From an uncultured Candidatus Saccharibacteria bacterium (GTDB taxonomy: Bacteria; Patescibacteriota; Andersenbacteria; UBA10190), in NCBI GenBank assembly GCA_964372635.1, contig CAYJQW010000005.1, positions 44 to 64,043 on the forward strand: a DNA stretch of 64,000 nt, written 5' to 3'. This document shows, one piece after another, positions 239 to 64,000 of the stretch; positions within the stretch are counted from its first letter, which is position 1, and the number at the start of each line of letters is the position of its first letter. Position numbers and translations under genes: made by a program. The notes beneath the pieces were generated by a model. The model worked only from the letters and a program-made list of their open reading frames with translations, made no database searches and was not told the DNA's origin.

Positions 239-1267
239 TCAGCCGGAAAGACAAAGATTAAACACTTTAATTTGTCCATTCATTTTTTTTACCATTTTAT
301 CCAGTTCTTCATTCAGGATATTTTGCTCAGCAATCGCCTTATTAAAGTCGGCAACTTGCTGATCAAAGGAAGATTTTTTAAGTTCAAATTCAGCTCGTTT
401 GTCATTAGCTTTGGCTTGCAAAGCTGCACCAGCCGTCCAATATGGCTGGGCAGCGTCATTGCCTTGTTCCTGTGCAACTTTGTTTCCCTCATTAATTTTT
501 TCATTGCCTTGGTCGGTAAGATCTGAAATTTCAGAGGCGAGAGCCTCGAGCATGGCTTTGTCACGATCTATTTCAAGGCGTCGCGCTTCAATTGCCACTG
601 CATTATTCTTGAAAGAGGTCTTTTTCTGGTCGAATGTTTTTTGTAAGTCGGCATCAATACCAGGGCAACTAGACAATGGCAGAGCAAATGTCTGCACGGC
701 CAGCCAAGTGTCACGTCCTTCAAACTGGCCGCGACCAACAGCAATACCAAGCTCGCTCATGCCGGCATGTAAAATATTGGCACGATGACCTGGTGAATCC
801 ATCCAAGCTTGAACAAGGTCGGCATCATCTTTGAAATTTCCCAGGGCTAGATTTTCACCGACTCGGATATATTCATAGCTCACGGCCTCTACAACATCGG
901 CTGGACCCTCACCGGTTGGTGATTCGTGGGCAAAATACTGACGGCTAAACATATCAGCCATTTTATTGGCGGCTGCTTTATTAAGTACACTATTACCCGT
1001 TAATGTTTTTAATCCTGCCTGAGTACGATGCTGATTTGTTTGTGCCAAAACACCAGCCACGGTGAGGGGAGTCTGCGCTAATTTAAGAGTAGACGCTACC
1101 CGGAGCGGTCCAGGAGTTATGACTTCTCTAGCTTGTTTAAGCGTCTCGGCAAAATCAACAACACTGTTTGGCGTCGTATATATATTTTTCTGTCCAATCC
1201 AAAACCAAAGTCCACCGACCGCTCCCGTCAATAAAAGTAAAAGAAGTAAGGCGTAAATAAATCGCAT
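239..1267 (-). CDS. Membrane-anchored CAP/SCP (YkwD-like) domain protein with long C-terminal coiled-coil
   Basis: Hydrophobic N-terminus MRFIYALLLLLLLTGAVGG. CAP-like block HESPTGEGP...GENLA...W..SPGHRANIL...GIAV. C-terminal third is Q/E/K-rich and predicted coiled-coil. Confidence 0.6.
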   Translation of the reverse strand: MRFIYALLLLLLLTGAVGGLWFWIGQKNIYTTPNSVVDFAETLKQAREVITPGPLRVASTLKLAQTPLTVAGVLAQTNQHRTQAGLKTLTGNSVLNKAAANKMADMFSRQYFAHESPTGEGPADVVEAVSYEYIRVGENLALGNFKDDADLVQAWMDSPGHRANILHAGMSELGIAVGRGQFEGRDTWLAVQTFALPLSSCPGIDADLQKTFDQKKTSFKNNAVAIEARRLEIDRDKAMLEALASEISDLTDQGNEKINEGNKVAQEQGNDAAQPYWTAGAALQAKANDKRAEFELKKSSFDQQVADFNKAIAEQNILNEELDKMVKKMNGQIKVFNLCLSG

Positions 1268-3187: not shown

Positions 3188-3886
3188 ATGTTTATTTGGG
3201 GGAATCGTTTTTTGCCTGCTCTAGTAGTAATTATATCTGTTTTATTTTTGGGTACAGCCGGCGCAGTGGAGGCCTCACATGTAGACCGGGAGCAGCAGCG
3301 CCTTGAACGGGAACAGCGCTCTGCCGAGCGTGATGCCGAACGGGCTCTCAGACGTGCTGAGCGTGAAGCTGAACAAATAGCACGGGAAGAAAAAAGAAAT
3401 CAGGAAGAGGTAAAAGTGCCAACCTGTACTTGCCGTGCCAGTATAAGTTTTTCCCGGCCACAACAGCTTACTTTTCTTAACAACATTCTGACTTTTAAGC
3501 CGAGGCTAGATCTTAGAATCAGTTCCCGTGGTGATGCTGATGCACCAATGTGGCAAGCCAACATGTTGTCTTCAGGTCGTGCCACTTTTTCATCTGGAGA
3601 CATAGCTACGCCGCCTGATTCTAATTTTGAATTCAATAACAGTACAAATGAATTTCCATGTGGCACTACCTATAACCACAGTGGACTTGCTCTTGGCGGG
3701 GTGTCTTTATCAGGAGTTATGCGCACTCTGCTGGGTTTTGATAAAAATCTCAAGGGCACGATTATTATGAGCACCACACTGACAATTCCATCTTGTCAAC
3801 TTGAAGAAATGGTAATGAAGCAGTTTAGCTTTTCACTTACGGGAGCAAACAGCGCGCGGTTGGGTAGCTGGCGTTCGGTGCGCTAA
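3188..3886 (+). CDS. Secreted hypothetical protein with charged helical segment (RE/EQ-rich) and Cys-containing C-terminal domain
   Basis: N-terminal signal/TM LPALVVIISVLFLGTAGAVEA, then REQQRLEREQRSAERDAERALRRAEREAEQIAREEKR. Lies downstream of a ~500 bp AT-rich non-coding region. Confidence 0.45.
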   Translation: MFIWGNRFLPALVVIISVLFLGTAGAVEASHVDREQQRLEREQRSAERDAERALRRAEREAEQIAREEKRNQEEVKVPTCTCRASISFSRPQQLTFLNNILTFKPRLDLRISSRGDADAPMWQANMLSSGRATFSSGDIATPPDSNFEFNNSTNEFPCGTTYNHSGLALGGVSLSGVMRTLLGFDKNLKGTIIMSTTLTIPSCQLEEMVMKQFSFSLTGANSARLGSWRSVR

Positions 3887-4099
3887 ATGTGCTTATGCAC
3901 ATATTGTGGATAACGAGTACCTTGTCAGGCTCTTGTGCTGTGTTATCACTAAATAGAAGTCAAATCCGTGTGTTTTTAGGGGGAAGGGACTAGAGGCACA
4001 GTATTAATATCTGTGTTTTTTTATATCCATGCGAAACATGCGTATCTGTAAAATGACAATCATCAATACTCTGAAACTTTTGAAAGGAGGTGAGTACAG

Positions 4100-5236
4100 A
4101 TGATGACTAACCTAAAGAAGATTCTCTTCAGTGTATCTGCGCTCGCCTTTGCTTTTGCCATCACGGCTGCGCCAGTTATGGCTGCCGAGGTAGACGTAGA
4201 AGGGAACAACACGAACACTGGAGCTGACTCAGACAACGACAACGACTTCGATATTGACAACGACGTAGATGTTGACGTTGATAATGACGCTGACATCGAT
4301 AACGATGCTGACGTCGACGCCGATACTGGTGATAACGAACAAAATGAAAACACTAATGCCGGCGACCTCGAATCCGGGGTTGTGGACTTGTCAGGTGAGT
4401 GGGAAACCATCGTAAATGGTGGTGCTTCACTCTTGAGTGCTAGTACTGGAGATTTAGATGTCGAAGCCGACTTCGTAAACGACACAACTGGTGCTGACTC
4501 AGACAACGACAACGATCTTGACGTTGATAACGATGTTGATCTCGACTTGGACAATATAGCCGACATCGTGAACGATCTCGACTATGACGCCGATACTGGT
4601 GATAACGAACAAAATGAAAACACTAATGCCGGCAGTCTAATGTCGGGTGACGCTTCATTAATGTTTGACATCTTTAACGAAGCTAACAACGATGCTGGAT
4701 TCGCTGGCGCCGCTGGTAGCGACGTGATAATTGATGTCATTGGTGAGAACAACACCACAGGTTCCGATTCAGACAATAGCAACGACTTCGATATTGACAA
4801 CGACTTCGACTATAGTGTCGATAACGATGCTGATATTGATAATGATGTTGATGTAGACATCGACACTGGTGATAACGAGCAAAACGAAAACACCAATGCC
4901 GGTGACTTAAAGTCTGGCAAAGCCGAAGTGGTAGTGTCTCTCAACAATTCCGCCAATAACGGAAGTAGCGCCTCTAGTGCATATACAGGAAATCTCGGTG
5001 TAAAAGCCGACTTCTTAAACGACACAACTGGTGCTGACTCAGACAACGACAACGACCTCGACGTTGATAACGACGTAGATGTTGATGTTGATAATGACGC
5101 TGACATCGATAACGATGTTGACGTTGATGCCAACACTGGTGATAACGAACAAAACGAAAACACCAATGCAGGCAGTACAAAATCAGGAGATGTGAGCATT
5201 GAGCTCAACATTTCTAACGAAGCTAACAACAGCTAG
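4100..5236 (+). CDS. Secreted, extremely acidic tandem-repeat protein (poly Asp-x-Asp/Asn tracts; 4 repeats of ~90 aa)
   Basis: Strong RBS aaaggaggtg 7 nt upstream. Signal peptide ending AAPVMA|AE. Four repeats each carry SDNDND(F/L)D(I/V)DNDVDVDVDNDADIDND.DVDA(D/N)TGDNEQNENTNAG. Confidence 0.75.
   Translation: MMTNLKKILFSVSALAFAFAITAAPVMAAEVDVEGNNTNTGADSDNDNDFDIDNDVDVDVDNDADIDNDADVDADTGDNEQNENTNAGDLESGVVDLSGEWETIVNGGASLLSASTGDLDVEADFVNDTTGADSDNDNDLDVDNDVDLDLDNIADIVNDLDYDADTGDNEQNENTNAGSLMSGDASLMFDIFNEANNDAGFAGAAGSDVIIDVIGENNTTGSDSDNSNDFDIDNDFDYSVDNDADIDNDVDVDIDTGDNEQNENTNAGDLKSGKAEVVVSLNNSANNGSSASSAYTGNLGVKADFLNDTTGADSDNDNDLDVDNDVDVDVDNDADIDNDVDVDANTGDNEQNENTNAGSTKSGDVSIELNISNEANNS
4212..5180 (+). 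repeat. Four tandem ~270 bp near-identical DNA repeats inside the acidic protein gene
   Basis: Units start near 4212, 4488, 4758 and 5028 (periods 276, 270, 270). The first and fourth units are almost identical at nucleotide level, e.g. ggtgataacgaacaaaa(t/c)gaaaacac(t/c)aatgc. Confidence 0.7.
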
Positions 5237-5264
5237 TTTACTAACTGTAAGTGACCTTCGTGTC

Positions 5265-5292
5265 AGGAGGGTAAGTGTCTACTTACCCTCCT
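5265..5292 (+). terminator. Perfect 12 bp hairpin (aggagggtaagt-gtct-acttaccctcct) 30 nt after the stop; terminator-like, no U-tract
   Basis: Inverted repeat read directly. No T-run follows, so it may be a stability element or a leaky terminator between two co-directional surface-protein genes. Confidence 0.4.
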
Positions 5293-5387
5293 CCACGAGC
5301 GTCAAATGGTATAGTAGGGCGCTTTAACAATGAATTAACTGTAGAAATCTAGTGTAAGAAACAGGATCAATAAAAAATAATCTTCCT

Positions 5388-8300
5388 ATGATTCACCTAA
5401 AATTAAAAAGAATATATCTGAAAAAAACCGCAGCTGTTTTTATCATACTATGGTTTAGTCTACTGCCAACTGTCTCAGCTCTGGCTCAGGATGCCGTTGA
5501 CGCCAACGGTAATCCAACTGGTCCAACGGGCCCAACTGGTCCAAAAGGCCCAACTGGTGCTCCAGCATGTACTGGCGCTGGTTGTGGACAAGGAGTAGGA
5601 CAGGGTGAAAATCAAGGCGGGCCGAGCTCGGCTGATTTAGGTGCGGATGAAAACGGAAATTTACCTGAAGGTGTTGTCGACACAAGACAAGGCGCAAATC
5701 AGGGTAAATCTCAGGGCATAGTCAATGGTACGACTGCCACTAACAGTAATACTGGTTCAGGATCAAGCAATACAATTGACTCAGACACAAATAACTCGTC
5801 CTCGGCTACAACAAATAATACTGTCGCTGATAACACTGCGGCGACGGCAACGGCTACAACTGGCAGCAACACACAAAGCAAAAACACTAGTGCCAACGGG
5901 ATAACTTCTGGGAACGCCAGTATCAGTGCGACGGTTGTCAAAACAGATAACACGGCAACAATTGGCGGAACTGCTGGTTTATCTTCACAGCAATATGCCG
6001 GCACCTACAATGGTGATTATGCCGTCGGTTTTGGTGCCGGCACGGCGGCCCTGACTGGTGCCAGCGGGCCAAAATCATATCAGCTGACAAATCAGGTGAC
6101 CGGTTCTAATTCAACTAATGACATTAACGTTTTTACTACCTTAGAAGAACTGGTTGAAGTGCAAAATGATGGCAAGATAAATAATGATCTTAATGTTACG
6201 GCCGACACTGGTAATAATGCGGCCAACGAAAACACCGGTAATGGCTCGATCGTCACAGGCAATGCTAATGTGGCCGCAACTTTGGTTAATTTACTGAATA
6301 CAACTATCATCAACGGCGACCTCTGGATAACGGTCGCGGACATTTTCGGCAATTTGCAAGGCAATATCAATATTCCGGCTATGGCCAGCTATTTCTCAGG
6401 AGTTGTCGGTGGCGGCCTGGCTCTTGATGCCGGCAATTTAACCACCGGCTCAGACTCGCTTAACACGATTGCTGTTGATATAGATGATGTTGAGACATTT
6501 GATGTTACCAATGATGCTAAAATAAAAACAGCCGTTAATGCCACAGCGAATACGGGTAACAACGACACTATCTCTAACACCGGCGGCGGCTCGATCAATA
6601 CCGGCAATGCATCTGTGGCTGCCAGCAATGTTACGTTGGCTAACACAACGATTGAAGGCGGCAACTGGGGACTGTTTGTGGTCAATGCTCTGAACGGTTT
6701 TCTTGGTTTTTTGGTCGGTGACAACGGCAGTGTTAAAGCTCTCTCCCAAGATGAAACAATTCGTGAAATTACCGCTTATAATGACACTACCGGCGCAAAT
6801 TCTGTTAACACCATTGCAGTTACTGATGAACAGACACGAACCACAACCGTCGACAATGACGCTACAATCACCAATACAATCACGGCACTAGCTAATACCG
6901 GTGATAACGACGCTAATAGAAATACCGGTCAGGGAATTATTTCTACTGGGGATGCCGCTATTACTGCTTCAGCGATAAACATTGCGAATACAACAGTTAA
7001 AGATGGTTCTCTCTTTATTGCGGTTGTCAATGTCTTTGGTGATTGGTTTGGTGAACTTTTCTATGGTGGCAGCTCGCTGGCTCAAGCTGCAGCCAGCCAA
7101 GCGGCTGCCAATCAGGAAATTTCCCTAAACGTTGAGAATAATTCCACAGGATCTGAATCAACTAACACAGTTGATGTTGATGTTGATCGCTCGCATACGA
7201 CAACCATTACTAATGATGCTGACCTAGAATTTTCTCTTACGGCGGATGTGAATACCGGTGGTAATCGAGCTAATAAGAATACATTAGGGGCTAGTATTGA
7301 TACAGGTAATGCATTCTTAGCTCAGTACTCCCGAGCGGTAGCCAACGTGACCGGCGTGGCTGGTCCGGGCGGTCTGATTGTAAACGCCGACTTCACAAAT
7401 TCGGAAACTGGCTTTGATTCTAAAAATACTATCCGTGCCGATATTAATGACGAGCGAATTATCACTATCACAAATAACGCCAATCTCAACACCCTGCTTG
7501 GGTCATTAATTACTCCGGCGCTTGTTAATACCGGCCGCAATGAAGCCAATCAGAATACAATTGGTGGTGGTATTCAAACCGGCAACGTCAATGTTGATGC
7601 GGTGATTGCTAATCTCGTGAATAAAGTCCTAATCGCCTTGTCCGGAGAAGGGGTCGAGATCGATGCTACTTTTGTAAACACGTTGACAGGTGCCTTATCA
7701 ACCAATCTTAATGATCTGAATGCGGTGCGAACAGTACTCGCCACAGTGCTCAGTGATGCTGTCATAGACAATATTATTAACCTGTTGCTAAACACCGGCG
7801 CCAATATGTCTAATGAAAACACTAGTGCCAGCCTATCTGGTGCTGACGGCTTTAGTGCTCAAGCGACAGGTAGCGGCTCATCAATTGCCACTGGTGATAT
7901 TTGCGTAAACGGTGTGGTCACTAATAATGCTAATGCGTTTGGTATAAACGTAGATATTTCACAGAATGTAGATAATAACACCATCATCAATAATGATGTG
8001 ACCATTGACTCTACTACGGGCCAAAACGAGCAAAATAGAAATACTAGCGGTGCTCAAAATAATTCGACTGGAACCTGTGCGAAGTTAGCTCAAGTGCCAC
8101 CTGACAATAATCCACCAATGACTGGTGGAACGATCACACCACCACCTGTCGGTGGTGGTTCGGTAAATAGCACTGAGGTAGAGGCAGAAGACAGCGTCAG
8201 TGAAAGTGGTGCAGATAGTCAACCAATCGTGGCTGGTGTGTCATCGGCAAAAACACGGGTCGGATCTAATAGTATTCTTAAGCGTTTTCCGGTGGCGGGT

Positions 8301-8453
8301 AGTGAATCAATAGCTAAGTGGCTCTCAGGGTATCGAAATCCCGCTTGGCTGTATTTTTTAATTTCAGCCTTAGCTCTAGCAATCGTAGCCTCTTACTGTG
8401 ACAAAAAAGCACGGCAAGCCTTAGTTCTACCTGTGCCGATTGAAGCTGTCTAA
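5388..8453 (+). CDS. Large (1021 aa) secreted T/N/G-rich repeat surface protein with N-terminal collagen-like GPT triplets and a C-terminal TM anchor
   Basis: Signal peptide, then GNPTGPTGPTGPKGPTGAP. At least 7 divergent ~110 aa repeats carry (A/V)(D/N)TG.N.AN.NTG.G.I.TGNA.VAA...N.ANTT. The C-terminus AWLYFLISALALAIVASY plus CDKKARQ forms a TM anchor; no LPXTG motif. Confidence 0.7.
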   Translation: MIHLKLKRIYLKKTAAVFIILWFSLLPTVSALAQDAVDANGNPTGPTGPTGPKGPTGAPACTGAGCGQGVGQGENQGGPSSADLGADENGNLPEGVVDTRQGANQGKSQGIVNGTTATNSNTGSGSSNTIDSDTNNSSSATTNNTVADNTAATATATTGSNTQSKNTSANGITSGNASISATVVKTDNTATIGGTAGLSSQQYAGTYNGDYAVGFGAGTAALTGASGPKSYQLTNQVTGSNSTNDINVFTTLEELVEVQNDGKINNDLNVTADTGNNAANENTGNGSIVTGNANVAATLVNLLNTTIINGDLWITVADIFGNLQGNINIPAMASYFSGVVGGGLALDAGNLTTGSDSLNTIAVDIDDVETFDVTNDAKIKTAVNATANTGNNDTISNTGGGSINTGNASVAASNVTLANTTIEGGNWGLFVVNALNGFLGFLVGDNGSVKALSQDETIREITAYNDTTGANSVNTIAVTDEQTRTTTVDNDATITNTITALANTGDNDANRNTGQGIISTGDAAITASAINIANTTVKDGSLFIAVVNVFGDWFGELFYGGSSLAQAAASQAAANQEISLNVENNSTGSESTNTVDVDVDRSHTTTITNDADLEFSLTADVNTGGNRANKNTLGASIDTGNAFLAQYSRAVANVTGVAGPGGLIVNADFTNSETGFDSKNTIRADINDERIITITNNANLNTLLGSLITPALVNTGRNEANQNTIGGGIQTGNVNVDAVIANLVNKVLIALSGEGVEIDATFVNTLTGALSTNLNDLNAVRTVLATVLSDAVIDNIINLLLNTGANMSNENTSASLSGADGFSAQATGSGSSIATGDICVNGVVTNNANAFGINVDISQNVDNNTIINNDVTIDSTTGQNEQNRNTSGAQNNSTGTCAKLAQVPPDNNPPMTGGTITPPPVGGGSVNSTEVEAEDSVSESGADSQPIVAGVSSAKTRVGSNSILKRFPVAGSESIAKWLSGYRNPAWLYFLISALALAIVASYCDKKARQALVLPVPIEAV

Positions 8454-8510: not shown

Positions 8511-9425
8511 ATGAATAAATTGACTAACAAACAATTGAGTTGGATCTTAGCAGGAACTGTTGTCACTCTATTCATTGTGTTAGCGCTTGGTTTTCAACAA
8601 AGATCACTCCGTCAGGGACAAGTAATTCGAGCTGCCTTAGATAAATTAACGATTACTGAATCCCTCCACGCTAAAGCCGATTTTACTATGCATCTACCTA
8701 AGCGATTACGAAATATTCAGCGGCCATTTCGAGAAGTGCATGTAACTATTGAGGGGGATGTTAAAAAAGATGAAACTAATTTTCCACAGATAACCGGTAA
8801 ACTAAACGGAGACTTGACGGGCCCCGGTAATACATTCTTCTTTAACGGTGATGTACGTATTTTCAATGACGCCGTCGCTTTTCATTTGGTTGACTTTCCT
8901 GCTCTTTTAAATCCTCGCGGAACATTGTCGAACCGATGGACATATGTACCGACGAGTCTGCTCTCGACAAAAAATGGCAGTGATGTAACAAGAGAACTCA
9001 AAGACCTAGCTTCAAACTTAAAGTATAAAGGCACTAAAAAAATATCAGGTATTTCGGCCTATCATTACACCGGATCATTTTCAGCTGAACAAGAACAGAC
9101 TTTAAGTACTATATTGGGCCGGGCAATATCAGGGAATTTGGCCCTTGATGTCATCGCTCGACTACTTGCCGCAAATAATGTGAAATCATTTGACCTTTAT
9201 GTAAATACTAAAACCAATGAAATCACCCGACTGGCAATTAATTTTGTGCGACCCCTGACTAACGGTTCTGAAGTTTCAGTTGTCGATCTTAACCTTTCTT
9301 TTACGGATTATGGAAAGAAGGTTTCCATTGACCGGCCAGAGGAACAAGCAAAGGCCAGACCAGAAATCTTTGCCAAGCTGTTTGGCACGTCGAATGTTGG
9401 TTCTGTAACTGTTGAAGCTAATTAA
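8511..9425 (+). CDS. Signal-anchored extracytoplasmic hypothetical protein (304 aa)
   Basis: Single N-terminal TM (SWILAGTVVTLFIVLALGF), then a soluble domain with no motif I recognise. Confidence 0.5.
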   Translation: MNKLTNKQLSWILAGTVVTLFIVLALGFQQRSLRQGQVIRAALDKLTITESLHAKADFTMHLPKRLRNIQRPFREVHVTIEGDVKKDETNFPQITGKLNGDLTGPGNTFFFNGDVRIFNDAVAFHLVDFPALLNPRGTLSNRWTYVPTSLLSTKNGSDVTRELKDLASNLKYKGTKKISGISAYHYTGSFSAEQEQTLSTILGRAISGNLALDVIARLLAANNVKSFDLYVNTKTNEITRLAINFVRPLTNGSEVSVVDLNLSFTDYGKKVSIDRPEEQAKARPEIFAKLFGTSNVGSVTVEAN

Positions 9426-9447: not shown

Positions 9448-11226
9448 ATGACCTATTTGCCGCGCGCTTTTTTTCTAGGCTTAAGCCTTGTTACTTTGTT
9501 ATCTGCCTCTATCCCACTGGTACCAATTCAGGCCGAAAGTACTGATGAGAATGTATATCTCGTTGTTGAATTAAAAGATACTACGAATGATCCGACAACC
9601 GATAAAGTTTTACGCCGACAATTAAGAGACGTCCGAAGTCTAAGTGACCGTTTGCCGCGCAACTATATAGCCGATGGAAAAAAATTGCGCACGCAAGATT
9701 TACGTCGCTGGCGAGTTGTTGCAGTACCAAGCAGCCGTGCCGATGTTTTACTAGCTGAGCTAAAAGCCAATCCAGCCGTCATTTCAGTTCGCCGCGAAAA
9801 TATCTATCAAACAACTCAATTAACTAACGATCCATTGCTGCCGCAGCAATATGCGCTGAGTGGTAGTCCTGGTATTTCTGTTCAAGCGACATCGGCCTGG
9901 GATAAAACGACAGGGTCGGGTAATACCGTTATAGCGATTATTGACGGCGGGGTCGATCTAACTCATGAAGATTTGATGGGAAAAATTTGGAAAAATCCTA
10001 AGGAAAGTCAAAACGGTCGGGATGATGATGGTAACGGCTTCATTGATGACATCTATGGCTGGGATTTTGTCACAAACCAGCCGGTCAGTTATGCGCACAA
10101 GCACGGCACACACGTGGCGGGCATTGCCGCCGCCAGTGGTAATAACGGCAAAGGTATATCTGGCGTGAATCACGGAGCGCGAATAATGTCTGTGCGGGTT
10201 TTAAACCAGTCTGGACTTGGTCGTGAAGAATGGATCGTTCGCGGAATCGAATACGCCGTGGCTAATGGTGCTAAAATTATTAATCTTAGTATTGCCGGCT
10301 CAGTTTCGGCACCTATGTTAGATGCCATTGAACAAGCTTATGCAAATAATGTCTTGGTTGTAGCCGCAGCCGGCAATAGTGGTCTTGATACAACTTTGCG
10401 CAAAGTATATCCGGTTTGTGCTGATCGTAATGGTATCAATATGGTCCTTGGTGTTGGGGCCACCAATAGTAAAGGTGAGCCGGCGCGTTTTAGTAATTAT
10501 GGAAGTTGTGTTGATGTTTCTGCTCCCGGGGATGATATATTAAGTACAACGCCGGGTAACCGCTATCAAGAAATGAGCGGTACTTCTATGAGTTCACCCT
10601 TGGCGGCCGGCATCGCCGGTTTATACCTGGCACAAAACCCAGGAGCGAGCCCAAGCCAGGTAATCGGGCGTTTGCGCGATTCGCTTGATTCATTTTCGGG
10701 TAGTAAGGCAGCTCTCTGGAACGCGAGATATAAAGGTAAATTAAATGCTGCCAAAGTGGTTGGTGCGCCGGCAGTGTCGGTGCCCTTGCCGACAATTTCG
10801 CCACAACCTTCTACCTCACCGGCATCTCCGCCAGCTACTCCCCAAGCTAATAATCCGGCAGAATTATCGATTGAGCTAGCTGGTCCCGGTGAAAATAAGC
10901 GCGGCACATCTTTCGTTTATACTATAACTGTTCGCAATAGCGGTGGTAGTTCGGCTACCAATGTTCAAGCGATCGCCGATATTGACCGCGACACTAATTT
11001 TATCTCTGGAGCAGACTGCAGTTTAGATGGCCGTGATGTAGTTTGCAGTCGCAACAGCCTTAGTGCTGGCAGCACCACCAGTTTTGCGATAACCGTGGAC
11101 GTGGCTGATGGTGCGCGTTGTAACTCGTCTTTACGCAGCCGAGCCACTGTCTACATGGATGAAAGAGGACGCAGCCGGCGGCAAGATAATAGCGAACGAC
11201 TAAAAACAACCGTGACTTGCGAATAG
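9448..11226 (+). CDS. Secreted subtilisin-like serine protease (peptidase S8) with Pro-rich linker and C-terminal DUF11-like beta-sandwich domain
   Basis: Catalytic triad blocks AIIDGGVD (Asp), HGTHVAGIAAASGNNG (His) and GTSMSSPLAAGIAGL (Ser). Ca-binding-like DDDGNGFIDD. Linker PQPSTSPASPPATPQ, then TYTITVRNSGGSSATNV (DUF11-like). Confidence 0.85.
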   Translation: MTYLPRAFFLGLSLVTLLSASIPLVPIQAESTDENVYLVVELKDTTNDPTTDKVLRRQLRDVRSLSDRLPRNYIADGKKLRTQDLRRWRVVAVPSSRADVLLAELKANPAVISVRRENIYQTTQLTNDPLLPQQYALSGSPGISVQATSAWDKTTGSGNTVIAIIDGGVDLTHEDLMGKIWKNPKESQNGRDDDGNGFIDDIYGWDFVTNQPVSYAHKHGTHVAGIAAASGNNGKGISGVNHGARIMSVRVLNQSGLGREEWIVRGIEYAVANGAKIINLSIAGSVSAPMLDAIEQAYANNVLVVAAAGNSGLDTTLRKVYPVCADRNGINMVLGVGATNSKGEPARFSNYGSCVDVSAPGDDILSTTPGNRYQEMSGTSMSSPLAAGIAGLYLAQNPGASPSQVIGRLRDSLDSFSGSKAALWNARYKGKLNAAKVVGAPAVSVPLPTISPQPSTSPASPPATPQANNPAELSIELAGPGENKRGTSFVYTITVRNSGGSSATNVQAIADIDRDTNFISGADCSLDGRDVVCSRNSLSAGSTTSFAITVDVADGARCNSSLRSRATVYMDERGRSRRQDNSERLKTTVTCE

Positions 11227-13140: not shown

Positions 13141-13623
13141 ATGGCTTCATTTACCGAACGCTCTCCAAATGAGAAGGAAACATTAATTTTTGATTCACCG
13201 GATAAAGCGCGAGAATTCACTGAAGCAGCCCAGGAAAAGATTTCTAAAGAGAAGCGCAATGGTATGCGGCGTGACCGTGAAATTGTTGCCGAAGCTGTAG
13301 CTAACGAATTTGCACAATCTGGTCACGCTGTTCATTCGCTAAAAAAGCCGTGGCAGCATACCCCAGAAGAGCATGTTGAAGTAGAAGATCTGACTGACTT
13401 GGCATTTTCCAAAGACTTAACGACGGCGCTCCGCAAAGCAAAAGTTAGCCGCCACTATCCGCGCAATCTTGACCTTTTTCACGATGTCTTAACGGGGGAG
13501 CTTTATGAAGCTTTACGTGAGCACAAGCTTCATAAGCAACCCCTGATTGGCTGGACTATACTAACACTCAGTGTGGTTATAATCTTCTTTATCATTTTTC
13601 TACTCGTTCTTCTAACCTTATAA
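13141..13623 (+). CDS. Small tail-anchored membrane protein (160 aa, C-terminal TM) immediately upstream of the VirB4-like ATPase
   Basis: Soluble charged N-terminus, then GWTILTLSVVIIFFIIFLLVLLTL at the extreme C-terminus. Confidence 0.4.
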   Translation: MASFTERSPNEKETLIFDSPDKAREFTEAAQEKISKEKRNGMRRDREIVAEAVANEFAQSGHAVHSLKKPWQHTPEEHVEVEDLTDLAFSKDLTTALRKAKVSRHYPRNLDLFHDVLTGELYEALREHKLHKQPLIGWTILTLSVVIIFFIIFLLVLLTL

Positions 13624-13739: not shown

Positions 13740-16226
13740 ATGTCTTTCTTATTTACTCTAATTTTAATTTTGTCGTCGGTTTTTGCCACGGCCTTGTTCC
13801 TTTGGCTTATTTGGCAGACAATTCGCGAGCATGCCCGCCTGCGACGGACACTGGACATTGTCATGATGCAGGTTATGGTTCCAAAAGACTTAACAAAAGA
13901 AGAACGTGAAGAAGGCGTGGGGCAGGCCATTAAAGAGCGTATTGCGGTGGCAGAACAGTGGTTGTCAACTCTGGCCAATCTGCCAATAAAGTCACTAGAT
14001 CGCCTGATATATGGCCGGCCAATTCTCGTTCTTGAAATAGCCGCTCGTCAGGACGGAGTAATCGCTTTTTATGCTGGTACGGAGAGACGCTTTGCTGATC
14101 ATCTTGAGAAGCAAATTTATGCTTTTTATCCCGAGGCTGAAGTGGCGTTAGTCTCTGACTATACTATTTTTGAGTCAGGGGACACGATGAAATTTGGCTG
14201 GTTGCAATTACAGGAAAAACATCACTTGCCCTTGGCCACATATAAGGAGCTAGAAGCTGATCCGATGCAGGCTATGACAGGGGCACTGGCGAAACTACAA
14301 GATGGTGACGCGGCGGTGATTCAATTTGTCTGTCAAGCTGCGGGTAAAAGAGTTCACAAAAAAGGTCGGCGGGCGGCCCGTAAAACCATGCAAGGCAAGC
14401 AATTTGATGTTAGTGGTAATGGTCTTGGTATTAGATCAATCCGCGATGCCCTCACCAAGACAAAAGATGATAAGGCGGCAGCTGAAGCCCAAGCTGCCAA
14501 GCTGACACCGCGTTCTCAGGAGAGAGTTGAGTTAGTCGAGCAAAAGGTAGCTCAGCAGCAATTTTCTGTTAATATTCGCCTTGGCGTCTCAACAAGGCAA
14601 CCTGAAGATGCGGAACGTGCCTTTAATGCAGTTGTCGGTGCCTTTACTCAATATGATTTGCCAGATCTAAATCGATTGCGGTTACGGACAGTTAAAAAAC
14701 AGTCACCATTCATTCGTAGTTTGATTTTTCGTATCCCGCGTCCAAAAACAGCTAGCGCCTTGTCGACGACAGAGCTCACCTCGCTGTTTCATTTTCCGTT
14801 GCCAACAACGGCCACTCCCAACATTCAATGGCGAGGTGCAAAAAATGCTCCCGTTCCAACCGACATGCCAACTGAAGGGATGTTGCTCGGGCACAATGTT
14901 TATCGCGGCATTAATACACCGGTCTATTTACAAAGTGATGATCGCCGTCGTCACTTGTACCTTATTGGACAGACAGGCACCGGCAAAACCACATTATTTT
15001 TCAATATGATTATTCAAGATATTGTCGCCGGCCATGGGGTTGGTGTGGTTGATCCGCATGGTGACTTAATTGAAGACATTTTACTTCATATTCCAAAGGA
15101 GCGTACCAAGGATGTAATTCTTTTTGATCCGCGAGATACCGAAAGGCCACTCGGTTTCAATATTCTGGAAGCACGCGATCCGGCTCAGAAAGATTTAGTG
15201 GTCAATGAAGTTGTTCAAATCCTGCAGAAACTTGCTGCTCGTCTTAATCCTGAGTCTATTGGACCAATGTTTGAGCACTATTTGCGCAATGCCTTATTGG
15301 CGCTCGCGCAAGATCCCAATGCTACTTTAATTGATGTACCGCGAATGTTTGTTGATGATGGCTTTCGTCAAGCCATATTGAAACTAGAACAAGATCCTAC
15401 CGTCAGGCAGTTCTGGGAAAAAGAATATGCTCAATCGCAACGCGGCCAGATGTCAGCGGATATGTTGAGTTATGTGGTGAGTAAATTAGGGCGTTTTATT
15501 GGTAATGTGGTTGTTCGCAATATAATCGGTCAATCTCATTCTAGCTTTGATGTCCGAGAAGTCATGGATCAACAAAAAATATTATTATGTAACTTATCCA
15601 AGGGCCATCTTGGTGATATCAATGCTGACTTGTTGGGCTTTGTTCTGGTCTCAAAAATACAGATTGCAGCTCTTGGCCGAGCTAATGTGGCGGAAGATAA
15701 ACGTCCTGATTTTTACCTTTACTTAGACGAATTTCAAAACTTTACAACTGATAGTATTTCAACAATTCTTTCCGAAGCTAGGAAATACCGTCTTAACCTC
15801 AATTTGACCCACCAATTTATCCAGCAATTAGAGGAAAATATTCGTGAGGCAGTTTTTGGCAACGTTGGTACAGTGATCAGTTATCGTATTGGTGTTGAAG
15901 ATGCTGAATTTATAGCACCGCAGTTTTCGCCAGTGTTTGCTGAATATGACCTAGTTAATTTGGAGAGGTTTACAGCAGTTGCTCGGCCGTTGGTTAATGG
16001 CACTCCAGCACGATCTTTCAGTTTGCGTATTGCGCCGCCACCGCTAAGTGGTGATCCCGAGACCAGAGAATTAATTCGTGAACAGTCAAAGCAACGCTAT
16101 GGACGCTCCAAGGTTTTGGTTGAGGAAGAAATCATCAAGCGGTTTCAAATTGGTGATCCTAAAGCCGCGCCAAAATCGGGGGCTGGCGGGGACTACTTAA
16201 GTGAGTCTTTGTTCGACATAAAGTGA
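13740..16226 (+). CDS. Membrane-anchored FtsK-HerA superfamily P-loop ATPase, VirB4/TraC-like (828 aa)
   Basis: N-terminal TM. Walker A LYLIGQTGTGKTT is at ~residue 405-415, followed by VGVVDPHGDL. Walker B YLYLDEFQNF is at ~residue 660. Size and Walker A position match VirB4-type ATPases rather than VirD4. Confidence 0.55.
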   Translation: MSFLFTLILILSSVFATALFLWLIWQTIREHARLRRTLDIVMMQVMVPKDLTKEEREEGVGQAIKERIAVAEQWLSTLANLPIKSLDRLIYGRPILVLEIAARQDGVIAFYAGTERRFADHLEKQIYAFYPEAEVALVSDYTIFESGDTMKFGWLQLQEKHHLPLATYKELEADPMQAMTGALAKLQDGDAAVIQFVCQAAGKRVHKKGRRAARKTMQGKQFDVSGNGLGIRSIRDALTKTKDDKAAAEAQAAKLTPRSQERVELVEQKVAQQQFSVNIRLGVSTRQPEDAERAFNAVVGAFTQYDLPDLNRLRLRTVKKQSPFIRSLIFRIPRPKTASALSTTELTSLFHFPLPTTATPNIQWRGAKNAPVPTDMPTEGMLLGHNVYRGINTPVYLQSDDRRRHLYLIGQTGTGKTTLFFNMIIQDIVAGHGVGVVDPHGDLIEDILLHIPKERTKDVILFDPRDTERPLGFNILEARDPAQKDLVVNEVVQILQKLAARLNPESIGPMFEHYLRNALLALAQDPNATLIDVPRMFVDDGFRQAILKLEQDPTVRQFWEKEYAQSQRGQMSADMLSYVVSKLGRFIGNVVVRNIIGQSHSSFDVREVMDQQKILLCNLSKGHLGDINADLLGFVLVSKIQIAALGRANVAEDKRPDFYLYLDEFQNFTTDSISTILSEARKYRLNLNLTHQFIQQLEENIREAVFGNVGTVISYRIGVEDAEFIAPQFSPVFAEYDLVNLERFTAVARPLVNGTPARSFSLRIAPPPLSGDPETRELIREQSKQRYGRSKVLVEEEIIKRFQIGDPKAAPKSGAGGDYLSESLFDIK

Positions 16227-28677: not shown

Positions 28678-29667
28678 ATGGTGCCAGATAGATCACAATG
28701 GAATAACTTGGTGGAACAAGCTGCCGGAGGTTCATTTCTTCAAAGCTGGGAATGGGGGGAATTGCAAGGCAGTATGGGTCTCCCCTACCGACGCTTCTTT
28801 TCTAATGAGAATGAAGGGGCTATGGCCTTGGCCATCAGGCGGCCACTCTTTAGTAATCGATCATGGATATATATCCCTCGCGGCCCTCTTTGGCACAAGA
28901 AACCAGCTTTACTGAAGTTGCTGCCTGATGTGCAGGTATGGGCCGAAGAACAGCGGGCCGTATTCATTCGTGTTGAACCGCCAATAGAGGTGGCACATAG
29001 TTTAGACAAATCATGGCGTAAATCTGAACGTGATGTGCAGCCTAGACATACTCTTATGCTTAATCTCACGGACTCGCTTGAAGACATGCGGGCTGACATG
29101 CATCCCAAAACACGCTATAACATCGGTTTGGCTGAGCGGAGTAAAGTCGCAGTTCGTTTCTCAACCGCCAAGCGTGACATTAACGCCTTTATTACCTTGT
29201 CAAAAGAAGTGAAAGAGCGTTCCGGTTTTCGATATCATCCTGATGATTACTATCTGTCTCTGCTGCGATCCCTTGCCCCGGCCAATATGATTGAGCTGGC
29301 TGTGGCTGAACTCAATGGCGTGCCTTTAGCGATCAACCTTTTGATTTCTTGCAAGGACACTGTGACTTATGCTCATGGTGCAAGTTCATCAACTCAACGT
29401 GAGTTCATGGCCCCTCATCTTCTGCAATGGGAAACGATTCGCCGAGCTAAAGAAAACGGTTATAAGTCTTATGATCTTTATGGGGTAGCTCCACCCAATG
29501 CCGGAGCATTACATCCCTGGGCCGGCATTACTCGATTCAAAAAAGGTTTTGGCGGGCAACTATCATCTTATGCTGGCGCTTATGACCATGTTATTGATCC
29601 TGTCTTGTATTGGTTCTACAATATGGCCCACCGAATTAAACAACTGCCAAATAAGATAAAAAACTAA
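28678..29667 (+). CDS. FemAB-family aminoacyl-tRNA-dependent peptidoglycan branch transferase (FemX-like)
   Basis: FLQSWEWGELQ; size ~330 aa like Weissella FemX; GNAT-like duplicated fold blocks (AHGASSSTQREFMAPHLLQWETIRRAKENGYKSYDLYG). Confidence 0.65.
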   Translation: MVPDRSQWNNLVEQAAGGSFLQSWEWGELQGSMGLPYRRFFSNENEGAMALAIRRPLFSNRSWIYIPRGPLWHKKPALLKLLPDVQVWAEEQRAVFIRVEPPIEVAHSLDKSWRKSERDVQPRHTLMLNLTDSLEDMRADMHPKTRYNIGLAERSKVAVRFSTAKRDINAFITLSKEVKERSGFRYHPDDYYLSLLRSLAPANMIELAVAELNGVPLAINLLISCKDTVTYAHGASSSTQREFMAPHLLQWETIRRAKENGYKSYDLYGVAPPNAGALHPWAGITRFKKGFGGQLSSYAGAYDHVIDPVLYWFYNMAHRIKQLPNKIKN

Positions 29668-29732: not shown

Positions 29733-30950
29733 TTGTGTAATGTGATGAATCTGAATCGTTTGTTTCAACAAACCAAAAACATCTACCACGGCCTGCAGTC
29801 GCAATGGTGGCGGGCATGGTATCGGTGGCCTGATCTTGGCCTGAATATATATGGCGTTACCGGTACTGACGGAAAAACTACCACGGCGATTTTTCTTGCT
29901 GCTATTTTGCAGGAAAATTTTGGACGCGCTTCGGTTGGTCTACTCTCAACTGAACGTATTTATATCGGGGATGAGGTAAAAACCAATTCCACCCACATGA
30001 CAACACTAAACAGTCATCTTGTTTATCAATATTTACGGACGATGCATAACCGAGGCGTGAAACACCTGGTGCTTGAATTGACCAGCCATGCTCTGGATCA
30101 AAACCGCGTGGCCGGCATACGACTATCTGGAGCAATAATTACAAACATTACCCATGAGCATCTTGATTATCATAAGACGATGTCAGCCTACGCTGACGCT
30201 AAAGGCAAAATTGTCAGATATTTAAAATCAAAAGCACCACTTGTCGCCAATGCAGACGACAAATGGACATTACGCATAATTAACAAACTCAGATCTCAGA
30301 ATGAAAATTTGAATGTTATCGAGGTGACGGCTGCCCAAGCGGAAAGTATTCATACTTTTCTGCCCGGTGAATTTAATCAGGCCAACGCGGCCGCGGCGAG
30401 CACACTGGCCCAAGCCGTTGGAATCAATCATAAGAAAATTTCTGAAGGCCTAGCGCGAGTAAAGCAAGTGCCTGGGCGCATGGAATGGATTGAGCTGCCT
30501 AATAAAGCACGGGTACTAATTGATTTTGCTTTAACGCCGTCTGCTTTGGAGCATCTCTATCGTTATTTAAGATCTGAGGTGTCTGGCAAAATTTATGCTG
30601 TTTATGGTGCCGCCGGTCGTCGAGATCGCACTAAACGTCCATTGCAGAGCCGTGTCATTGCTCGTTTTGCCGATGAAATTGTCGTCACACAAGACGAACC
30701 ATACACTGAACCGGAAGAACAAATTTATACTGATCTTGAAGCTGGTCTTGAAGGTTTCAAAGTTCCCTGGCAACGTATTTCTGATCGGCGTGAGGCTTTG
30801 CGCTATGCTTTAAAGAAGGCTAGTCAGGGAGACGCCGTTGTTATCACGGGGATGGGGAATTTTACGACAAGAGTTGTTGGCACCGAACACATACCGTGGA
30901 ATGATCGAAATGTTGTTCAGCAGCTTATATCTGAGCTTACACTTAAATAA
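29733..30950 (+). CDS. MurE-like Mur ligase lacking the N-terminal UDP-binding domain (central + C-terminal domains only)
   Basis: YGVTGTDGKTTT P-loop about 40 aa from the start; ITNITHEHLDYH; DFALTPSALE; VYGAAGRRDRTKRP...FADEIVVTQDEP matches the MurE GCGGDRDKGKRP...VTDDNP block. Only 65 nt separate it from the upstream gene, so a missing N-domain cannot be hidden upstream. Confidence 0.7.
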   Translation: MCNVMNLNRLFQQTKNIYHGLQSQWWRAWYRWPDLGLNIYGVTGTDGKTTTAIFLAAILQENFGRASVGLLSTERIYIGDEVKTNSTHMTTLNSHLVYQYLRTMHNRGVKHLVLELTSHALDQNRVAGIRLSGAIITNITHEHLDYHKTMSAYADAKGKIVRYLKSKAPLVANADDKWTLRIINKLRSQNENLNVIEVTAAQAESIHTFLPGEFNQANAAAASTLAQAVGINHKKISEGLARVKQVPGRMEWIELPNKARVLIDFALTPSALEHLYRYLRSEVSGKIYAVYGAAGRRDRTKRPLQSRVIARFADEIVVTQDEPYTEPEEQIYTDLEAGLEGFKVPWQRISDRREALRYALKKASQGDAVVITGMGNFTTRVVGTEHIPWNDRNVVQQLISELTLK

Positions 30951-47599: not shown

Positions 47600-49063
47600 C
47601 TATTGCCGTCGAACTATGTTGGCTTCATTCTTCGTAAATATGTTGCGGCTGGCGTGACTGAAGCTGGGGTTGACGTGGTCTAGAAATATCGCTGCTTTCT
47701 GGCTCCTGACGATCGTGTTGGCCGTAAGTGTGTTATTGCGAACGTCGTCTTTTAGGTAAATGCCATAGCGGTTTCCGACCAACTTGTTGTCAAGCACTAT
47801 GTTTTTGTCCGTTCGAAGGTATACGCCACCACGACTGTTAGTGATTGTGTTGTTTCTGATAATCGTGTTTCCCGCTCCTTGATAGAGATACACACCGTAG
47901 TCGCGATTGTTTGCCAGTGTGTTGTATTCGACGAGGTTGCTGGTGGCAGGATCGTTAATGCGGATGCCGTTATTGTTGTCGTACGCCGTATTGTGGCGGA
48001 TGACGTTGTTGCTAGAACGATACACAGCGATTCCGTCCTGGTTGTTGTAAACCGTGTTGTCTTCTAACAAGTTATTGTGTGAGTCTTCATGAATTATAAT
48101 CCCGTGGCCTTGGTTATCATAGGAGATGTTGCCGCGGAAGGTATTACCGCGGCAGCGTTCGGAGACAATGATTCCGTGCTTGCCGTTGTGGTGAGCGCGG
48201 TTGCCGACGATCAGAGCGTAGTTAGAATCATTGTACGGATCGAGACCATAAATCACGTTGCGGTATAGCTCATTGTTAAGCCAGTTCATACCTACAGCTC
48301 CGAAAGTGTAGGTGCCGTAGTAGTTATGATGGAAGGAGCTTCCTCGTACCTCACCGGTCAAGAGGTGTACGCCCGACGTATCATCCGCTCGCCAACTAAC
48401 GCCGTAGTGGCCGCTTATGTTCGGCTGCGAGGCGTATCCAAGATAGGCAAGCTCGGCATCAATAATGTCCATGCGGGCATCCTGACCGGCACGGACATAG
48501 GCGCGGCCATCCTGCCAGCGGTAGTCATAGTCGCGCGCCTGCACGTCCCACGAGGTCAGACGCACACCTTCAATATAGATGCGACCTTGAACGACACGAA
48601 TCCAGACAAATTTTTCCGGTGTGCTGGTTAGCTTGAGGTCGGTTACCTCGGTAACTGTTAGTTCCAGCAGCACATCGCGATTAATCAGCAGATTAGTTTT
48701 TAGCAGCCAACTTGTTAATCCCAGCTGCTGTACGTGGTCGGGGCCAAGTGCGCGGGACAGGTCGGACATAGTCACGCTCGTGCCGGGGCCGCTGACGCTG
48801 ATCCTATCTTTCTCCGGCTCGTAGACAATTGTCGGTTTAGCCGACTGGTTTGTGGTGGCACGCAACGCCGCATCAGTGATGTCGTAACGGTGCAGCGGCA
48901 CGGTGATAAGTTGGTCGGCTACAAATTGCTGCCTCTGATTAACCGCAGTGAGATCAGCCACAGTGGTGTGGTAGCGGCGAGCAATCAGCGACATTGTATC
49001 TCCGTTCTTCCAGACGTAGGGAGCATCCCAGGTCTCGGTTGTGCGGTAAGCAGGCGCGGTCAC
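47600..49063 (-). CDS. LysM + right-handed parallel beta-helix (PbH1 repeat; pectate-lyase/NosD/AlgG-like) protein, no signal peptide
   Basis: N-terminal LysM-like YVWKNGDTMSLIARRYHTTVADLTAVNQ...LITVPL. About 9 PbH1-type repeats (NNQDGIAVYRSSNNVIRHNTAYDNNNGIRIN...). Start overlaps the GT2 stop (ATGA). Confidence 0.65.
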   Translation of the reverse strand: MTAPAYRTTETWDAPYVWKNGDTMSLIARRYHTTVADLTAVNQRQQFVADQLITVPLHRYDITDAALRATTNQSAKPTIVYEPEKDRISVSGPGTSVTMSDLSRALGPDHVQQLGLTSWLLKTNLLINRDVLLELTVTEVTDLKLTSTPEKFVWIRVVQGRIYIEGVRLTSWDVQARDYDYRWQDGRAYVRAGQDARMDIIDAELAYLGYASQPNISGHYGVSWRADDTSGVHLLTGEVRGSSFHHNYYGTYTFGAVGMNWLNNELYRNVIYGLDPYNDSNYALIVGNRAHHNGKHGIIVSERCRGNTFRGNISYDNQGHGIIIHEDSHNNLLEDNTVYNNQDGIAVYRSSNNVIRHNTAYDNNNGIRINDPATSNLVEYNTLANNRDYGVYLYQGAGNTIIRNNTITNSRGGVYLRTDKNIVLDNKLVGNRYGIYLKDDVRNNTLTANTIVRSQKAAIFLDHVNPSFSHASRNIFTKNEANIVRRQ

Positions 49064-51400: not shown

Positions 51401-51478
51401 AACAACCGACTAATTTAACATGGCGGCTTTAAAACCTCAAGTATTACTCTTAAATGGATAGGTGTTGCAGGTACTACC

Positions 51479-54990: not shown

Positions 54991-55023
54991 AGCCCCGATG
55001 TACCCCTTTTACTCCACCTGTCT

Positions 55024-55995: not shown

Positions 55996-56041
55996 CGTAC
56001 AGAACTTGTGCTACTTTTGTCGATAAGGAGGGGTCCTTCAT

Positions 56042-56542: not shown

Positions 56543-56554
56543 CGGATATACGTT

Positions 56555-59647: not shown

Positions 59648-59656
59648 ACCTAAGTT

Positions 59657-62842: not shown

Positions 62843-62917
62843 GCTTGTCGAGGAACAGGGTTAATCTTAAGTGCGTCGAAGAAGATTGACACCTCATCTG
62901 GCCAGCAGTATCGTGAC

Positions 62918-63811: not shown

Positions 63812-63873
63812 CGTGAAACTTTTGCCTGTGCGCAGGCGAAAGGATTAGTTTGGATATTGGTATGCAAATACCA

Positions 63874-63933
63874 AACTTTAACATTTCTTATATGTCGCGG
63901 CGGTGTCGTTTCGGCAAGAATCGAACTAACATC
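63874..63933 (+). repeat. Repeat copy C (right boundary of the GC-rich block)
   Basis: aactttaacatttcttatatgtcgcggcggtgtcgtttcggcaagaatcg is identical to copy B over ~54 nt. Two small hairpins precede it (gcctgtgcgcaggc; ttggtatgcaaataccaa). Confidence 0.65.
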
Positions 63934-64000
63934 ATAGTGTTTGTCTTTCATGTTTTGTGAAAAAATGATGGCTACCCAAATAAGCTCCTACATCTTTCGT

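Follow-up and report, generated by a model that had tools for sequence, protein, structure and literature searches.

What are the two adjacent repeat-rich genes, here called A and B, that lie close together in a 64,000-nucleotide stretch of DNA (the window) from the core chromosome of Candidatus Andersenbacteria (Parcubacteria; Candidate Phyla Radiation, CPR), and do their products belong together? A preliminary description of this DNA had taken the two surface proteins for paralogues at the level of a repeat that it could not place in any known family, one of them anchored and the other a free polyanionic partner, on a shared scaffold fold. These points were borne out, the shared fold as a structure prediction. 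The analysis strongly supports A and B as secreted paralogues built on one predicted all-beta repeat fold of ~80-90 residues and, judged from sequence features, it also strongly supports a predicted Sec-exported B with a wall- or membrane-anchored C-terminus beside a predicted exported, free and polyanionic A. The A/B repeat defines an undescribed surface-repeat family that is widespread in, and specific to, CPR bacteria and whose genes have a conserved two-component arrangement. We hold this descriptive part of the analysis with high confidence.

The secreted short form, A, has the following features.
4083-4093 (+): Shine-Dalgarno sequence of A (AAAGGAGGTGA), near-perfect, 6 nt before the ATG, read from the sequence
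4100-5236 (+): gene A, open reading frame (ORF) of the 378-amino-acid secreted short form, with signal peptide, four repeats and no anchor
4100-4183 (+): signal peptide of A, amino acids 1-28 (...PVMA/AEVDV), of typical Sec type and kept in homologues
4184-4453 (+): repeat 1 of A, amino acids 29-118 (hmmsearch 101.7 bits; alignment)
4454-4723 (+): repeat 2 of A, amino acids 119-208 (hmmsearch 104.0 bits; alignment)
4724-4993 (+): repeat 3 of A, amino acids 209-298 (hmmsearch 101.3 bits; alignment)
4994-5233 (+): repeat 4 of A, amino acids 299-378 (hmmsearch 98.5 bits), the protein stopping where the repeat stops
Mature A consists of these four repeats with nothing flanking them on either side, and its 83 Asp and 19 Glu versus 4 Lys and no Arg give a net charge of -98. 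Among the matches listed, ~120 are homologues of A, with lengths of 190-590 amino acids.

The anchored long form, B, begins downstream on the same strand.
5388-8453 (+): gene B, ORF of the 1021-amino-acid anchored long form
5388-5486 (+): signal peptide of B, amino acids 1-33 (...SALA/QDA), by inspection, kept in orthologues
5487-5720 (+): low-complexity N-terminal head, with five Gly-X-Y triplets (5520-5564), CTGAGC, (xQG)n and then the conserved LGADENGNLPEGVVDTRQGA segment
5721-8078 (+): repeat region, seven full repeats and one partial, amino acids 112-897
8079-8285 (+): Pro/Gly-rich disordered linker, amino acids 898-966, from composition and a predicted local distance difference test (pLDDT) of ~30; candidate wall-spanning segment
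8286-8300 (+): FPVAG, amino acids 967-971, candidate LPXTG-like sorting motif
8343-8450 (+): C-terminal transmembrane (TM) segment (amino acids 986-1004) and basic tail (DKKAR...), from the AlphaFold2 helix at 986-1012 and the family consensus of TM segment plus DRRAR
By inspection, amino acids 1-33 of B show the basic n-region, hydrophobic core and ALA/Q site of a Sec signal peptide. The seven full repeats occupy amino acids 112-228, 229-342, 343-457, 458-574, 575-663, 664-756 and 757-850, and two conserved Cys bracket the partial eighth (851-897). Homologues of B are named as Andersenbacteria or Parcubacteria, and the 62 full-length orthologues (34-57% identity, ~48%) have 7-8 repeats in about 1000 amino acids. 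The head had been likened to collagen, and B does share with the collagen-like proteins BclA and Scl a short GPT-rich Gly-X-Y run near the N-terminus (GPTGPTGPKGPTGAP, amino acids 45-59), but the run has only five triplets, one GPT fewer than had been noted, and falls in a segment modelled with pLDDT <50 (amino acids 32-76, versus ~80 at 80-100). In orthologues it varies from 6-8 triplets to TGAPxD hexamers, with Gly only at each sixth residue, or is absent. A collagen-like domain was rejected on these grounds, and the run is a low-complexity linker rather than a conserved collagen domain.

The relationship between the two proteins is evident from direct comparison. BLASTP aligns whole repeats of A and B end to end (E 3e-29, composition-adjusted), and a hidden Markov model (HMM) built from each protein finds the other: the model from B repeats alone scores A at 206 bits versus -17 for the best of 300 shuffles, and the model from A repeats alone scores B at 184 bits versus -28 for the best shuffle. 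Twelve columns are invariant over the four A and seven B repeats (N8, T11, G12, S15, N17, T47, G48, N50, N55, T56, G64 and N77). The repeat unit of ~80-90 amino acids is present in four copies in A and 7.5 copies in B, with a period of 90 amino acids in A and 89-117 in B, and the repeat has a long form with a period of 112-117 and a short form of 87-91 amino acids. Repeats 0-3 of B are of the long form (~115 amino acids, with an extra hydrophobic hairpin, ...GGNWGLFVVNALNGFLGFL...) and repeats 4-6 of the A-like short form. The two motifs that the preliminary description had read as separate modules are real and shared, but N..TG..S.N is the N-terminal turn and TG.N....NT...G...TG the central turn of one and the same repeat, a signature that is kept in 1,742 repeats from 378 proteins. 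Tandem Repeats Finder did not find a 270-bp DNA period and returned only micro-periods of 18 bp (DxDxDN) and 9 bp (GPT; 5513-5558), so the repeats are of old origin, and neither an assembly artefact nor recent expansion accounts for them. A repeat-profile search of the window identified A and B as its only repeat-bearing ORFs.

Between the two turns, profile positions 16-46 form one continuous 31-residue strand with a perfect two-residue alternation. Odd strand positions are hydrophobic or invariant Asn, with Asp/Glu at 0-2% nearly everywhere (6% at position 25), and even positions are polar, being almost all Asp in A and Thr, Asn, Asp or Lys in B. The 'poly-Asp' stretches of A, which had been thought to replace the strands of B, are in fact the same homologous strand with Asp on its exposed face, the Asp residues occupying up to 17 alternate positions (for example, amino acids 43-76, DSDNDNDFDIDNDVDVDVDNDADIDNDADVDADT). 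In short forms generally, Asp/Glu make up 50-66% at exposed strand positions. In unanchored short forms the mean Asp+Glu content is 20% and the mean net charge -17 per 100 amino acids (10th-90th percentile -26 to -7), and in long forms the mean net charge is -7 per 100 amino acids. Two long antisense ORFs over A (4063-4566 and 4810-5229, both reverse strand) have Ser/Thr/Leu-rich translations and appear to arise from the GAY-NNN codon periodicity of A, not to be genes.

AlphaFold2, run with family alignments, models both proteins as all-beta (A, pLDDT 80 and predicted template modelling score 0.68; B, pLDDT 75 and 0.65, with the repeats mostly at 85-97). The modelled repeat comprises a ~10-residue strand, a TGxxS turn, the 31-residue strand, an irregular TGxNxxNxNTGxG hairpin and a strand of 11-16 residues; in B, amino acids 32-76 and 898-983 are modelled as disordered and 986-1012 as helical. 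Mean-field direct coupling analysis (DCA), which is independent of AlphaFold2, was applied to 1,617 repeats from 378 family proteins (effective number, Meff, 1,476) and yielded two antiparallel registers. The first, with i+j = 111-113, joins positions 35-52 with 58-76 through the pairs (52,58), (50,61), (47/48,64), (45,66), (43,68), (41,72), (37,74) and (35,76), and the second, with i+j = 25-27, joins positions 6-8 with 17-21 through (6,21), (8,17) and (8,19). These contacts match the strand layout of the AlphaFold2 model. Foldseek found no significant match to the models in the PDB (best E 0.028 with a template modelling score of 0.04 for A, best E 1.8 for B) and none for A in BFVD (best E 0.003, score 0.10). 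Parallel beta-helices or solenoids, CsgA and FapC among them, account for almost all of the top non-significant PDB matches, a hint of solenoid-like local geometry. Invariant buried Asn and Gly/Thr at bends are known features of beta-solenoids, and the buried invariant Asn and Gly/Thr bends of the A/B repeat may be read in the same way. Same-position couplings from the DCA were rejected as evidence for a solenoid versus a meander, as those between repeats n and n+2 are as strong as those between n and n+1 and the couplings therefore reflect shared ancestry. As modelled, the fold is a confident and apparently new all-beta architecture.

Family searches likewise left the repeat without a described counterpart. 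Pfam gave nothing for A or B at E <= 0.1, with no match to DUF11 or CARDB (PF01345, PF07705) in either; NCBIfam returned for A only Ser-Asp-repeat noise (17-23 bits versus cut-offs of 999-2500), and membership of A in the Sdr/Clf group of MSCRAMM adhesins was rejected accordingly. No match to A, B or the repeat was obtained among all PDB sequences by phmmer or repeat-profile hmmsearch, and literature searches found no description of the repeat family. Its phylogenetic distribution, which the preliminary description had proposed to trace, was obtained from an exhaustive search with the repeat-profile HMM of 1.84 billion representatives of clusters at 50% identity. This search recovered 2,482 proteins at E <= 1e-3, 1,399 at E <= 1e-10 and 328 at E <= 1e-30; among 378 family proteins, repeats number 1-10 (nearly all 2-8) and lengths run from ~95 to 1,180 amino acids. 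The matches with a named source are all CPR/Patescibacteria (Andersenbacteria, Parcubacteria group, Patescibacteria group, Staskawiczbacteria and Berkelbacteria), and as far as these data go the repeat is restricted to Patescibacteria (CPR). Distant members can carry additional domains, every one of them of an extracellular kind (DUF11, DUF7507, dockerin and PG_binding_1), DUF11 being present only as a separate extra domain in such relatives and in the neighbouring subtilase.

The C-termini of the two proteins differ. That of B apparently follows the plan of a sortase sorting signal, its pentapeptide being a variant one: the Pro/Gly spacer leads into KRFPVAG, and 14 residues further on come a hydrophobic segment and DKKAR. 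The preliminary description was right that B ends in a TM helix and contains no literal LPXTG, but it missed the conserved LPXTG-like FPVAG signal: (K/R)RFPVAG is kept in 42 long-form homologues, and other long forms have LPVTG, LPETG, LAPTG, LAFTG, LPVAG or FPTAG at the same site. There is strong support for spacer, FPVAG, TM segment and basic tail together being the arrangement of either a sortase substrate or a membrane anchor in a monoderm cell. A-type proteins stop exactly at the last repeat and, in every lineage examined, lack a sorting motif, a TM segment and a basic tail. Two further genes of the window imply peptidoglycan with an interpeptide bridge, to which a sortase could plausibly attach B.
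28678-29667 and 29733-30950 (+): FemAB-family transferase and Mur ligase

The genes around A and B provide a second line of evidence, and in the window they are arranged as follows.
3188-3886 (+): o232, upstream partner kept in Andersenbacteria
8511-9425 (+): o304, downstream partner kept in Andersenbacteria, with an N-terminal membrane anchor
9448-11226 (+): subtilase (Peptidase_S8, Pfam E 2e-53) with C-terminal DUF11 (E 2e-9)
13141-13623 (+): small membrane ORF, kept downstream of the cluster in Andersenbacteria
13740-16226 (+): VirD4/TraG-like coupling ATPase of 828 amino acids (T4SS-DNA_transf, E 2e-9), ~5 kb downstream, kept in Andersenbacteria
The order o232-A-B-o304 is kept in ~13 Andersenbacteria species, usually with an S8 subtilase and/or the small ORF and VirD4-like ATPase downstream of o304, and S8 genes flank the pair in loci L003, L005, L009, L012, L018, L019 and L020. 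Sortases of family PF04203 adjoin the orthologous or paralogous pair in L014, L016, L018, L020, L021 and L022, lying directly upstream of it in the divergent relatives L014 (E 9e-22) and L016 (E 4e-20). In Berkelbacteria (L018, L020), a sortase comes first, then an anchored member with two repeats (FFPAGAS plus TM segment), a secreted acidic member with three (22-27% Asp+Glu), an anchored member with four, a second sortase and an S8 protease. Staskawiczbacteria (L019) have a secreted 6-repeat member followed by a 7-repeat member with a terminal dockerin and an S8 gene nearby, and L022 has a secreted member of four repeats, two anchored members of four and then three repeats, and a sortase. The recurring core is therefore a secreted short form and then an anchored long form, with wall-attachment and processing enzymes nearby, and the conservation of this short-then-long order across CPR lineages supports, at the level of gene order, A and B as a probable functional pair.

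Three of these clusters hold a third small family member of 2-3 repeats with its own C-terminal anchor (L018:4965-5894, L020:5890-6870 and L022:10524-11696), which suggests a three-component arrangement in those lineages. The two flanking partners in Andersenbacteria were each considered as a stand-in for a sortase. The o232 protein, syntenic in at least seven related loci and specific to Andersenbacteria clusters, has an N-terminal signal or anchor, a helix rich in Arg and Glu and a beta-rich domain in which four Cys are conserved (C80, C82 and C203 are invariant in the alignment, which ends in WRxxR), and it has no Pfam or PDB match; a divergent sortase, as its TLxxC-like motif might indicate, was rejected because no His is conserved. 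The o304 protein, syntenic in at least ten loci, has no significant family match in Pfam, NCBIfam or the PDB, only sub-threshold hints to LppX/SCO4651-type lipoproteins, and no homology to Berkelbacteria neighbour genes; it was rejected as a sortase replacement because no Cys is conserved.

The spacer between A and B encodes a stable stem-loop, which differs from a canonical terminator found elsewhere in the window.
5252-5304 (+): RNA hairpin between A and B, ~19-bp stem, no U-tract (-34 kcal/mol, z = -7)
2695-2719: canonical terminator with a T-run
Across eight species (Andersenbacteria loci L001, L003, L005, L008, L010, L012 and L013 plus the window), the stem shows 96% pairing and compensatory changes in 12 of its 19 pairs, values reached by none of 500 shuffles and compared with 51-64% pairing in slid controls, although the most stable 70-nt segment was chosen per spacer, which favours hairpins. 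Homology of the hairpin is supported despite this choice because the lower stem is conserved (CUUCGUG...CACGAG), and its many G-U pairs assign it to the sense RNA. It has no match in Rfam. Spacers between short and long genes in Berkelbacteria, L022 and Staskawiczbacteria also have strong hairpins (z -4.7 to -9.7), versus z -0.8 and -2.2 for two upstream control spacers. Inspection of the sequence upstream of B found no Shine-Dalgarno site comparable to that of A. The strong Shine-Dalgarno sequence of A, the conserved stem-loop and the analogy with fimbrial operons together suggest that the short form may be made in excess of B.

Since the gene pair is found repeatedly throughout this uncultured group, A and B probably form a joint cell-surface structure. 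In the model proposed here, B would be fixed to the peptidoglycan or membrane with its repeat rod pointing outward, and A, present in excess and consisting of uncapped repeats only, would associate with B via the shared fold and probably also with itself, so that the assembly would give a polyanionic surface fibre or coat, possibly bridged by divalent cations. The neighbouring subtilase may process or mature the components, and sortase, found in other lineages, may attach them. We give the full model, an anchored base B and an abundant secreted paralogue A forming such a fibre or coat, an even chance of being correct. Several observations weigh against it. Inter-repeat coevolution is uninformative, with DCA of concatenated repeats giving 1.5 for adjacent and 1.4 for alternate repeats; the A-type protein of L014 is Ser/Thr/Asn-rich, and acidity is thus typical but not universal among secreted forms; part of the N-terminus of B is modelled as ordered (pLDDT ~80) and could act as a cap at the distal end, impeding growth from end to end; FPVAG is a candidate and not a proven sortase motif; and no sortase gene was found within this 64-kb window.

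Known surface systems offer parallels to such an assembly. In Streptomyces, the long chaplins ChpA-C carry an LAXTG sortase signal and the short ChpD-H are secreted, and the chaplin domain of ~40 amino acids is hydrophobic and forms a water-repellent amyloid layer. The A/B pair resembles the chaplins in having the same domain in long wall-anchored and short secreted paralogues, with adjacent genes, a monoderm cell and Sec export, but its repeat is 80-115 amino acids long with a strongly acidic exposed face, and no sequence similarity was seen. Similarly, curli (CsgA/CsgB) and Fap (FapC/FapB) combine a secreted major subunit with a surface-bound paralogue and share with A and B imperfect tandem beta repeats, conserved Asn/Gly/Thr/Ser at turns, buried polar residues and repeat-only subunits. 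In contrast to curli, the A/B repeat is 4-5 times longer and, the organism being monoderm, there is no CsgG-type outer-membrane secretion; no CsgG, CsgE or CsgF domains were found among the ORFs of the window. Membership in curli was rejected, as hhalign of the repeat profile with E. coli CsgA gave a probability of 0.03 for the CsgA-type repeat (S-X5-Q-X-G-X-G-N-X-A-X3-Q) and Pfam no curlin match, and the appearance of CsgA (8c50) and FapC (9u4u, 9nqd) among the top Foldseek results (E 0.03-0.08, template modelling scores 0.04-0.06) does not amount to a match. The likeness to chaplins and to CsgB-CsgA would thus be one of logic, not of sequence. A bolder extension, which we regard as speculative and rather unlikely, is a Patescibacteria-specific surface organelle. 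Its acidic, uncapped, secreted short forms would polymerise non-covalently, nucleated or retained by the wall-anchored long forms, and its beta fold would be a new one with exceptionally long amphipathic strands of ~31 residues; such a functional-amyloid- or S-layer-like coat could be the envelope layer seen on ultra-small CPR cells or their host-contact structure.

Among the alternatives to a joint structure, the one that survives best, although we consider it unlikely, is that A and B act independently, B as a wall-anchored stalk or adhesin for host attachment and A as a soluble secreted polyanion that never binds B, for example as a buffer of Ca2+ or other metals, a protein that binds minerals or ice, or part of a matrix. 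B does have a canonical fibrillar-adhesin layout, sharing with LPXTG surface proteins such as SasG/Aap and Sdr the signal peptide, repeat rod, Pro/Gly spacer, pentapeptide, hydrophobic segment and basic tail, as well as sortase genes in the cluster of related lineages; it differs from them in its FPVAG motif, placed 15 residues upstream of the TM segment, and in its unrelated repeat fold. We know of no obligate secreted paralogue partner for LPXTG fibrillar surface proteins. The flat carboxylate array predicted for A resembles cation- or mineral-binding surfaces, and the model has a weak, non-significant 3Di likeness to a Ca2+-dependent beta-helical antifreeze protein. With the Ca2+-binding beta-solenoids of RTX proteins and MpIBP region IV, A and B share extracellular arrays of Asp/Asn/Thr/Gly on repetitive beta structure, but they have no GGxGxD nonapeptide and no Pfam match, and the likeness to 3p4g is non-significant (E 3.6-5.7). 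The lifestyle of the group also favours independence, since CPR bacteria are epibionts that need attachment factors (PMC12102498, PMC12857230). However, the strict adjacency and order of the paralogues across deep lineages and the conserved intercistronic hairpin argue for co-function, the B orthologues are well conserved with a fixed repeat number, unlike fast-evolving host-range adhesins, and the acidity of A-type proteins is variable.

A two-dimensional lattice resembling a surface layer (S-layer), a geometric variant of the fibre with A as the abundant subunit held on the wall by B and cations, is doubtful, and we rate its chances as low. It fits the constant length and repeat number of the orthologues, the place of the locus in the core chromosome beside rpoBC, ftsK and recA, the acidic, Thr/Asn/Ala-rich and Cys-poor composition, and the apparently high expression of A indicated by its Shine-Dalgarno sequence and hairpin. 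In addition, Luef and colleagues reportedly saw by cryo-electron microscopy in 2015 a distinct S-layer on groundwater CPR cells, made of a protein that was not known. Neither protein has an SLH or other known S-layer anchoring domain in Pfam, however, and the 2-3 paralogues with different anchors in each cluster suit a base plus shaft at least equally well.

A covalent, sortase-polymerised pilus of the Gram-positive type, with A as shaft pilin and B as base or tip pilin, is very improbable. The 1-2 sortase genes within the cluster (Berkelbacteria, L014, L016, L021 and L022) and the up to three family paralogues per cluster would suit it, but A-type proteins cannot be sortase donor substrates because they lack sorting motif, TM segment and basic tail, and there is no conserved pilin-motif Lys, none of the 4 Lys of mature A being conserved. 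We place just as little belief in B and A as accessory adhesins of the Patescibacteria type IV secretion system (T4SS), analogous to PrgB of monoderm conjugation systems. Such a role would account for the VirD4-like ATPase and small conserved ORF ~5 kb downstream in Andersenbacteria, and no PrgB-like adhesin has been found for the Patescibacteria T4SS (PMC12102498). Nevertheless, virB4, virB6, virB8 and other T4SS genes are missing from the window, the VirD4-like gene is an orphan, like most Patescibacteria VirD4 homologues, which lie far from virB4 (PMC12102498), and the clusters of Berkelbacteria, Staskawiczbacteria and L022 do not contain it. Finally, a shared motif that merely reflects low complexity or composition, the possibility by which the preliminary description was prepared to stand or fall, has a negligible chance of being true: both proteins are Asn/Asp/Thr/Gly-rich and HMMER bias terms are large, but the cross-profile scores of 184-206 bits versus at most -17 for shuffles, the invariant columns, the family-wide signature and the consistent coevolving contacts refute it.

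CPR/Patescibacteria account for a large part of the diversity of bacteria and have an attached life on other cells, yet the proteins of their envelope and contact surface are almost unknown apart from type IV pili and the T4SS. The family defined here is large (2,482 or more clusters at 50% identity), has a clear signature and no Pfam, NCBIfam or PDB counterpart, and shows a conserved operon logic of abundant secreted form, RNA hairpin and anchored form, plus sortase or subtilase. A and B are thereby a concrete candidate for a major CPR surface structure and FPVAG a candidate non-canonical sortase motif, and the predicted flat, Asp-lined beta surface is of interest for cation and mineral binding and for protein design.

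Other genes of the window include rpoB/rpoC, ftsK, recA, ssb, uvrB and ruvA besides the Mur ligase and FemAB-family genes. Two further ORFs are listed here.
239-1267 (-): CAP/SCP-domain secreted protein of 342 amino acids with a C-terminal coiled-coil-like region, kept upstream of the cluster in L001 and L006
22334-24223 (-): 629-amino-acid ORF without a match in Pfam; its neighbours encode GDP-mannose dehydratase/epimerase enzymes and a GT87-like glycosyltransferase
Between the CAP/SCP gene and o232, the genes at 1371-1886 and 1941-2663 are without counterpart in related loci. Towards the far end, the G+C content climbs from ~0.43 to ~0.51 across ~47600-64000, a region that encodes a beta-helix/NosD protein with LysM, a GT2 glycosyltransferase, a UDP-glucose dehydrogenase, a MacB-type ABC (ATP-binding cassette) transporter, a PG_binding_1 protein and two AcrB-family RND (resistance-nodulation-division) transporters, and that may be an acquired island or a separate compositional domain.

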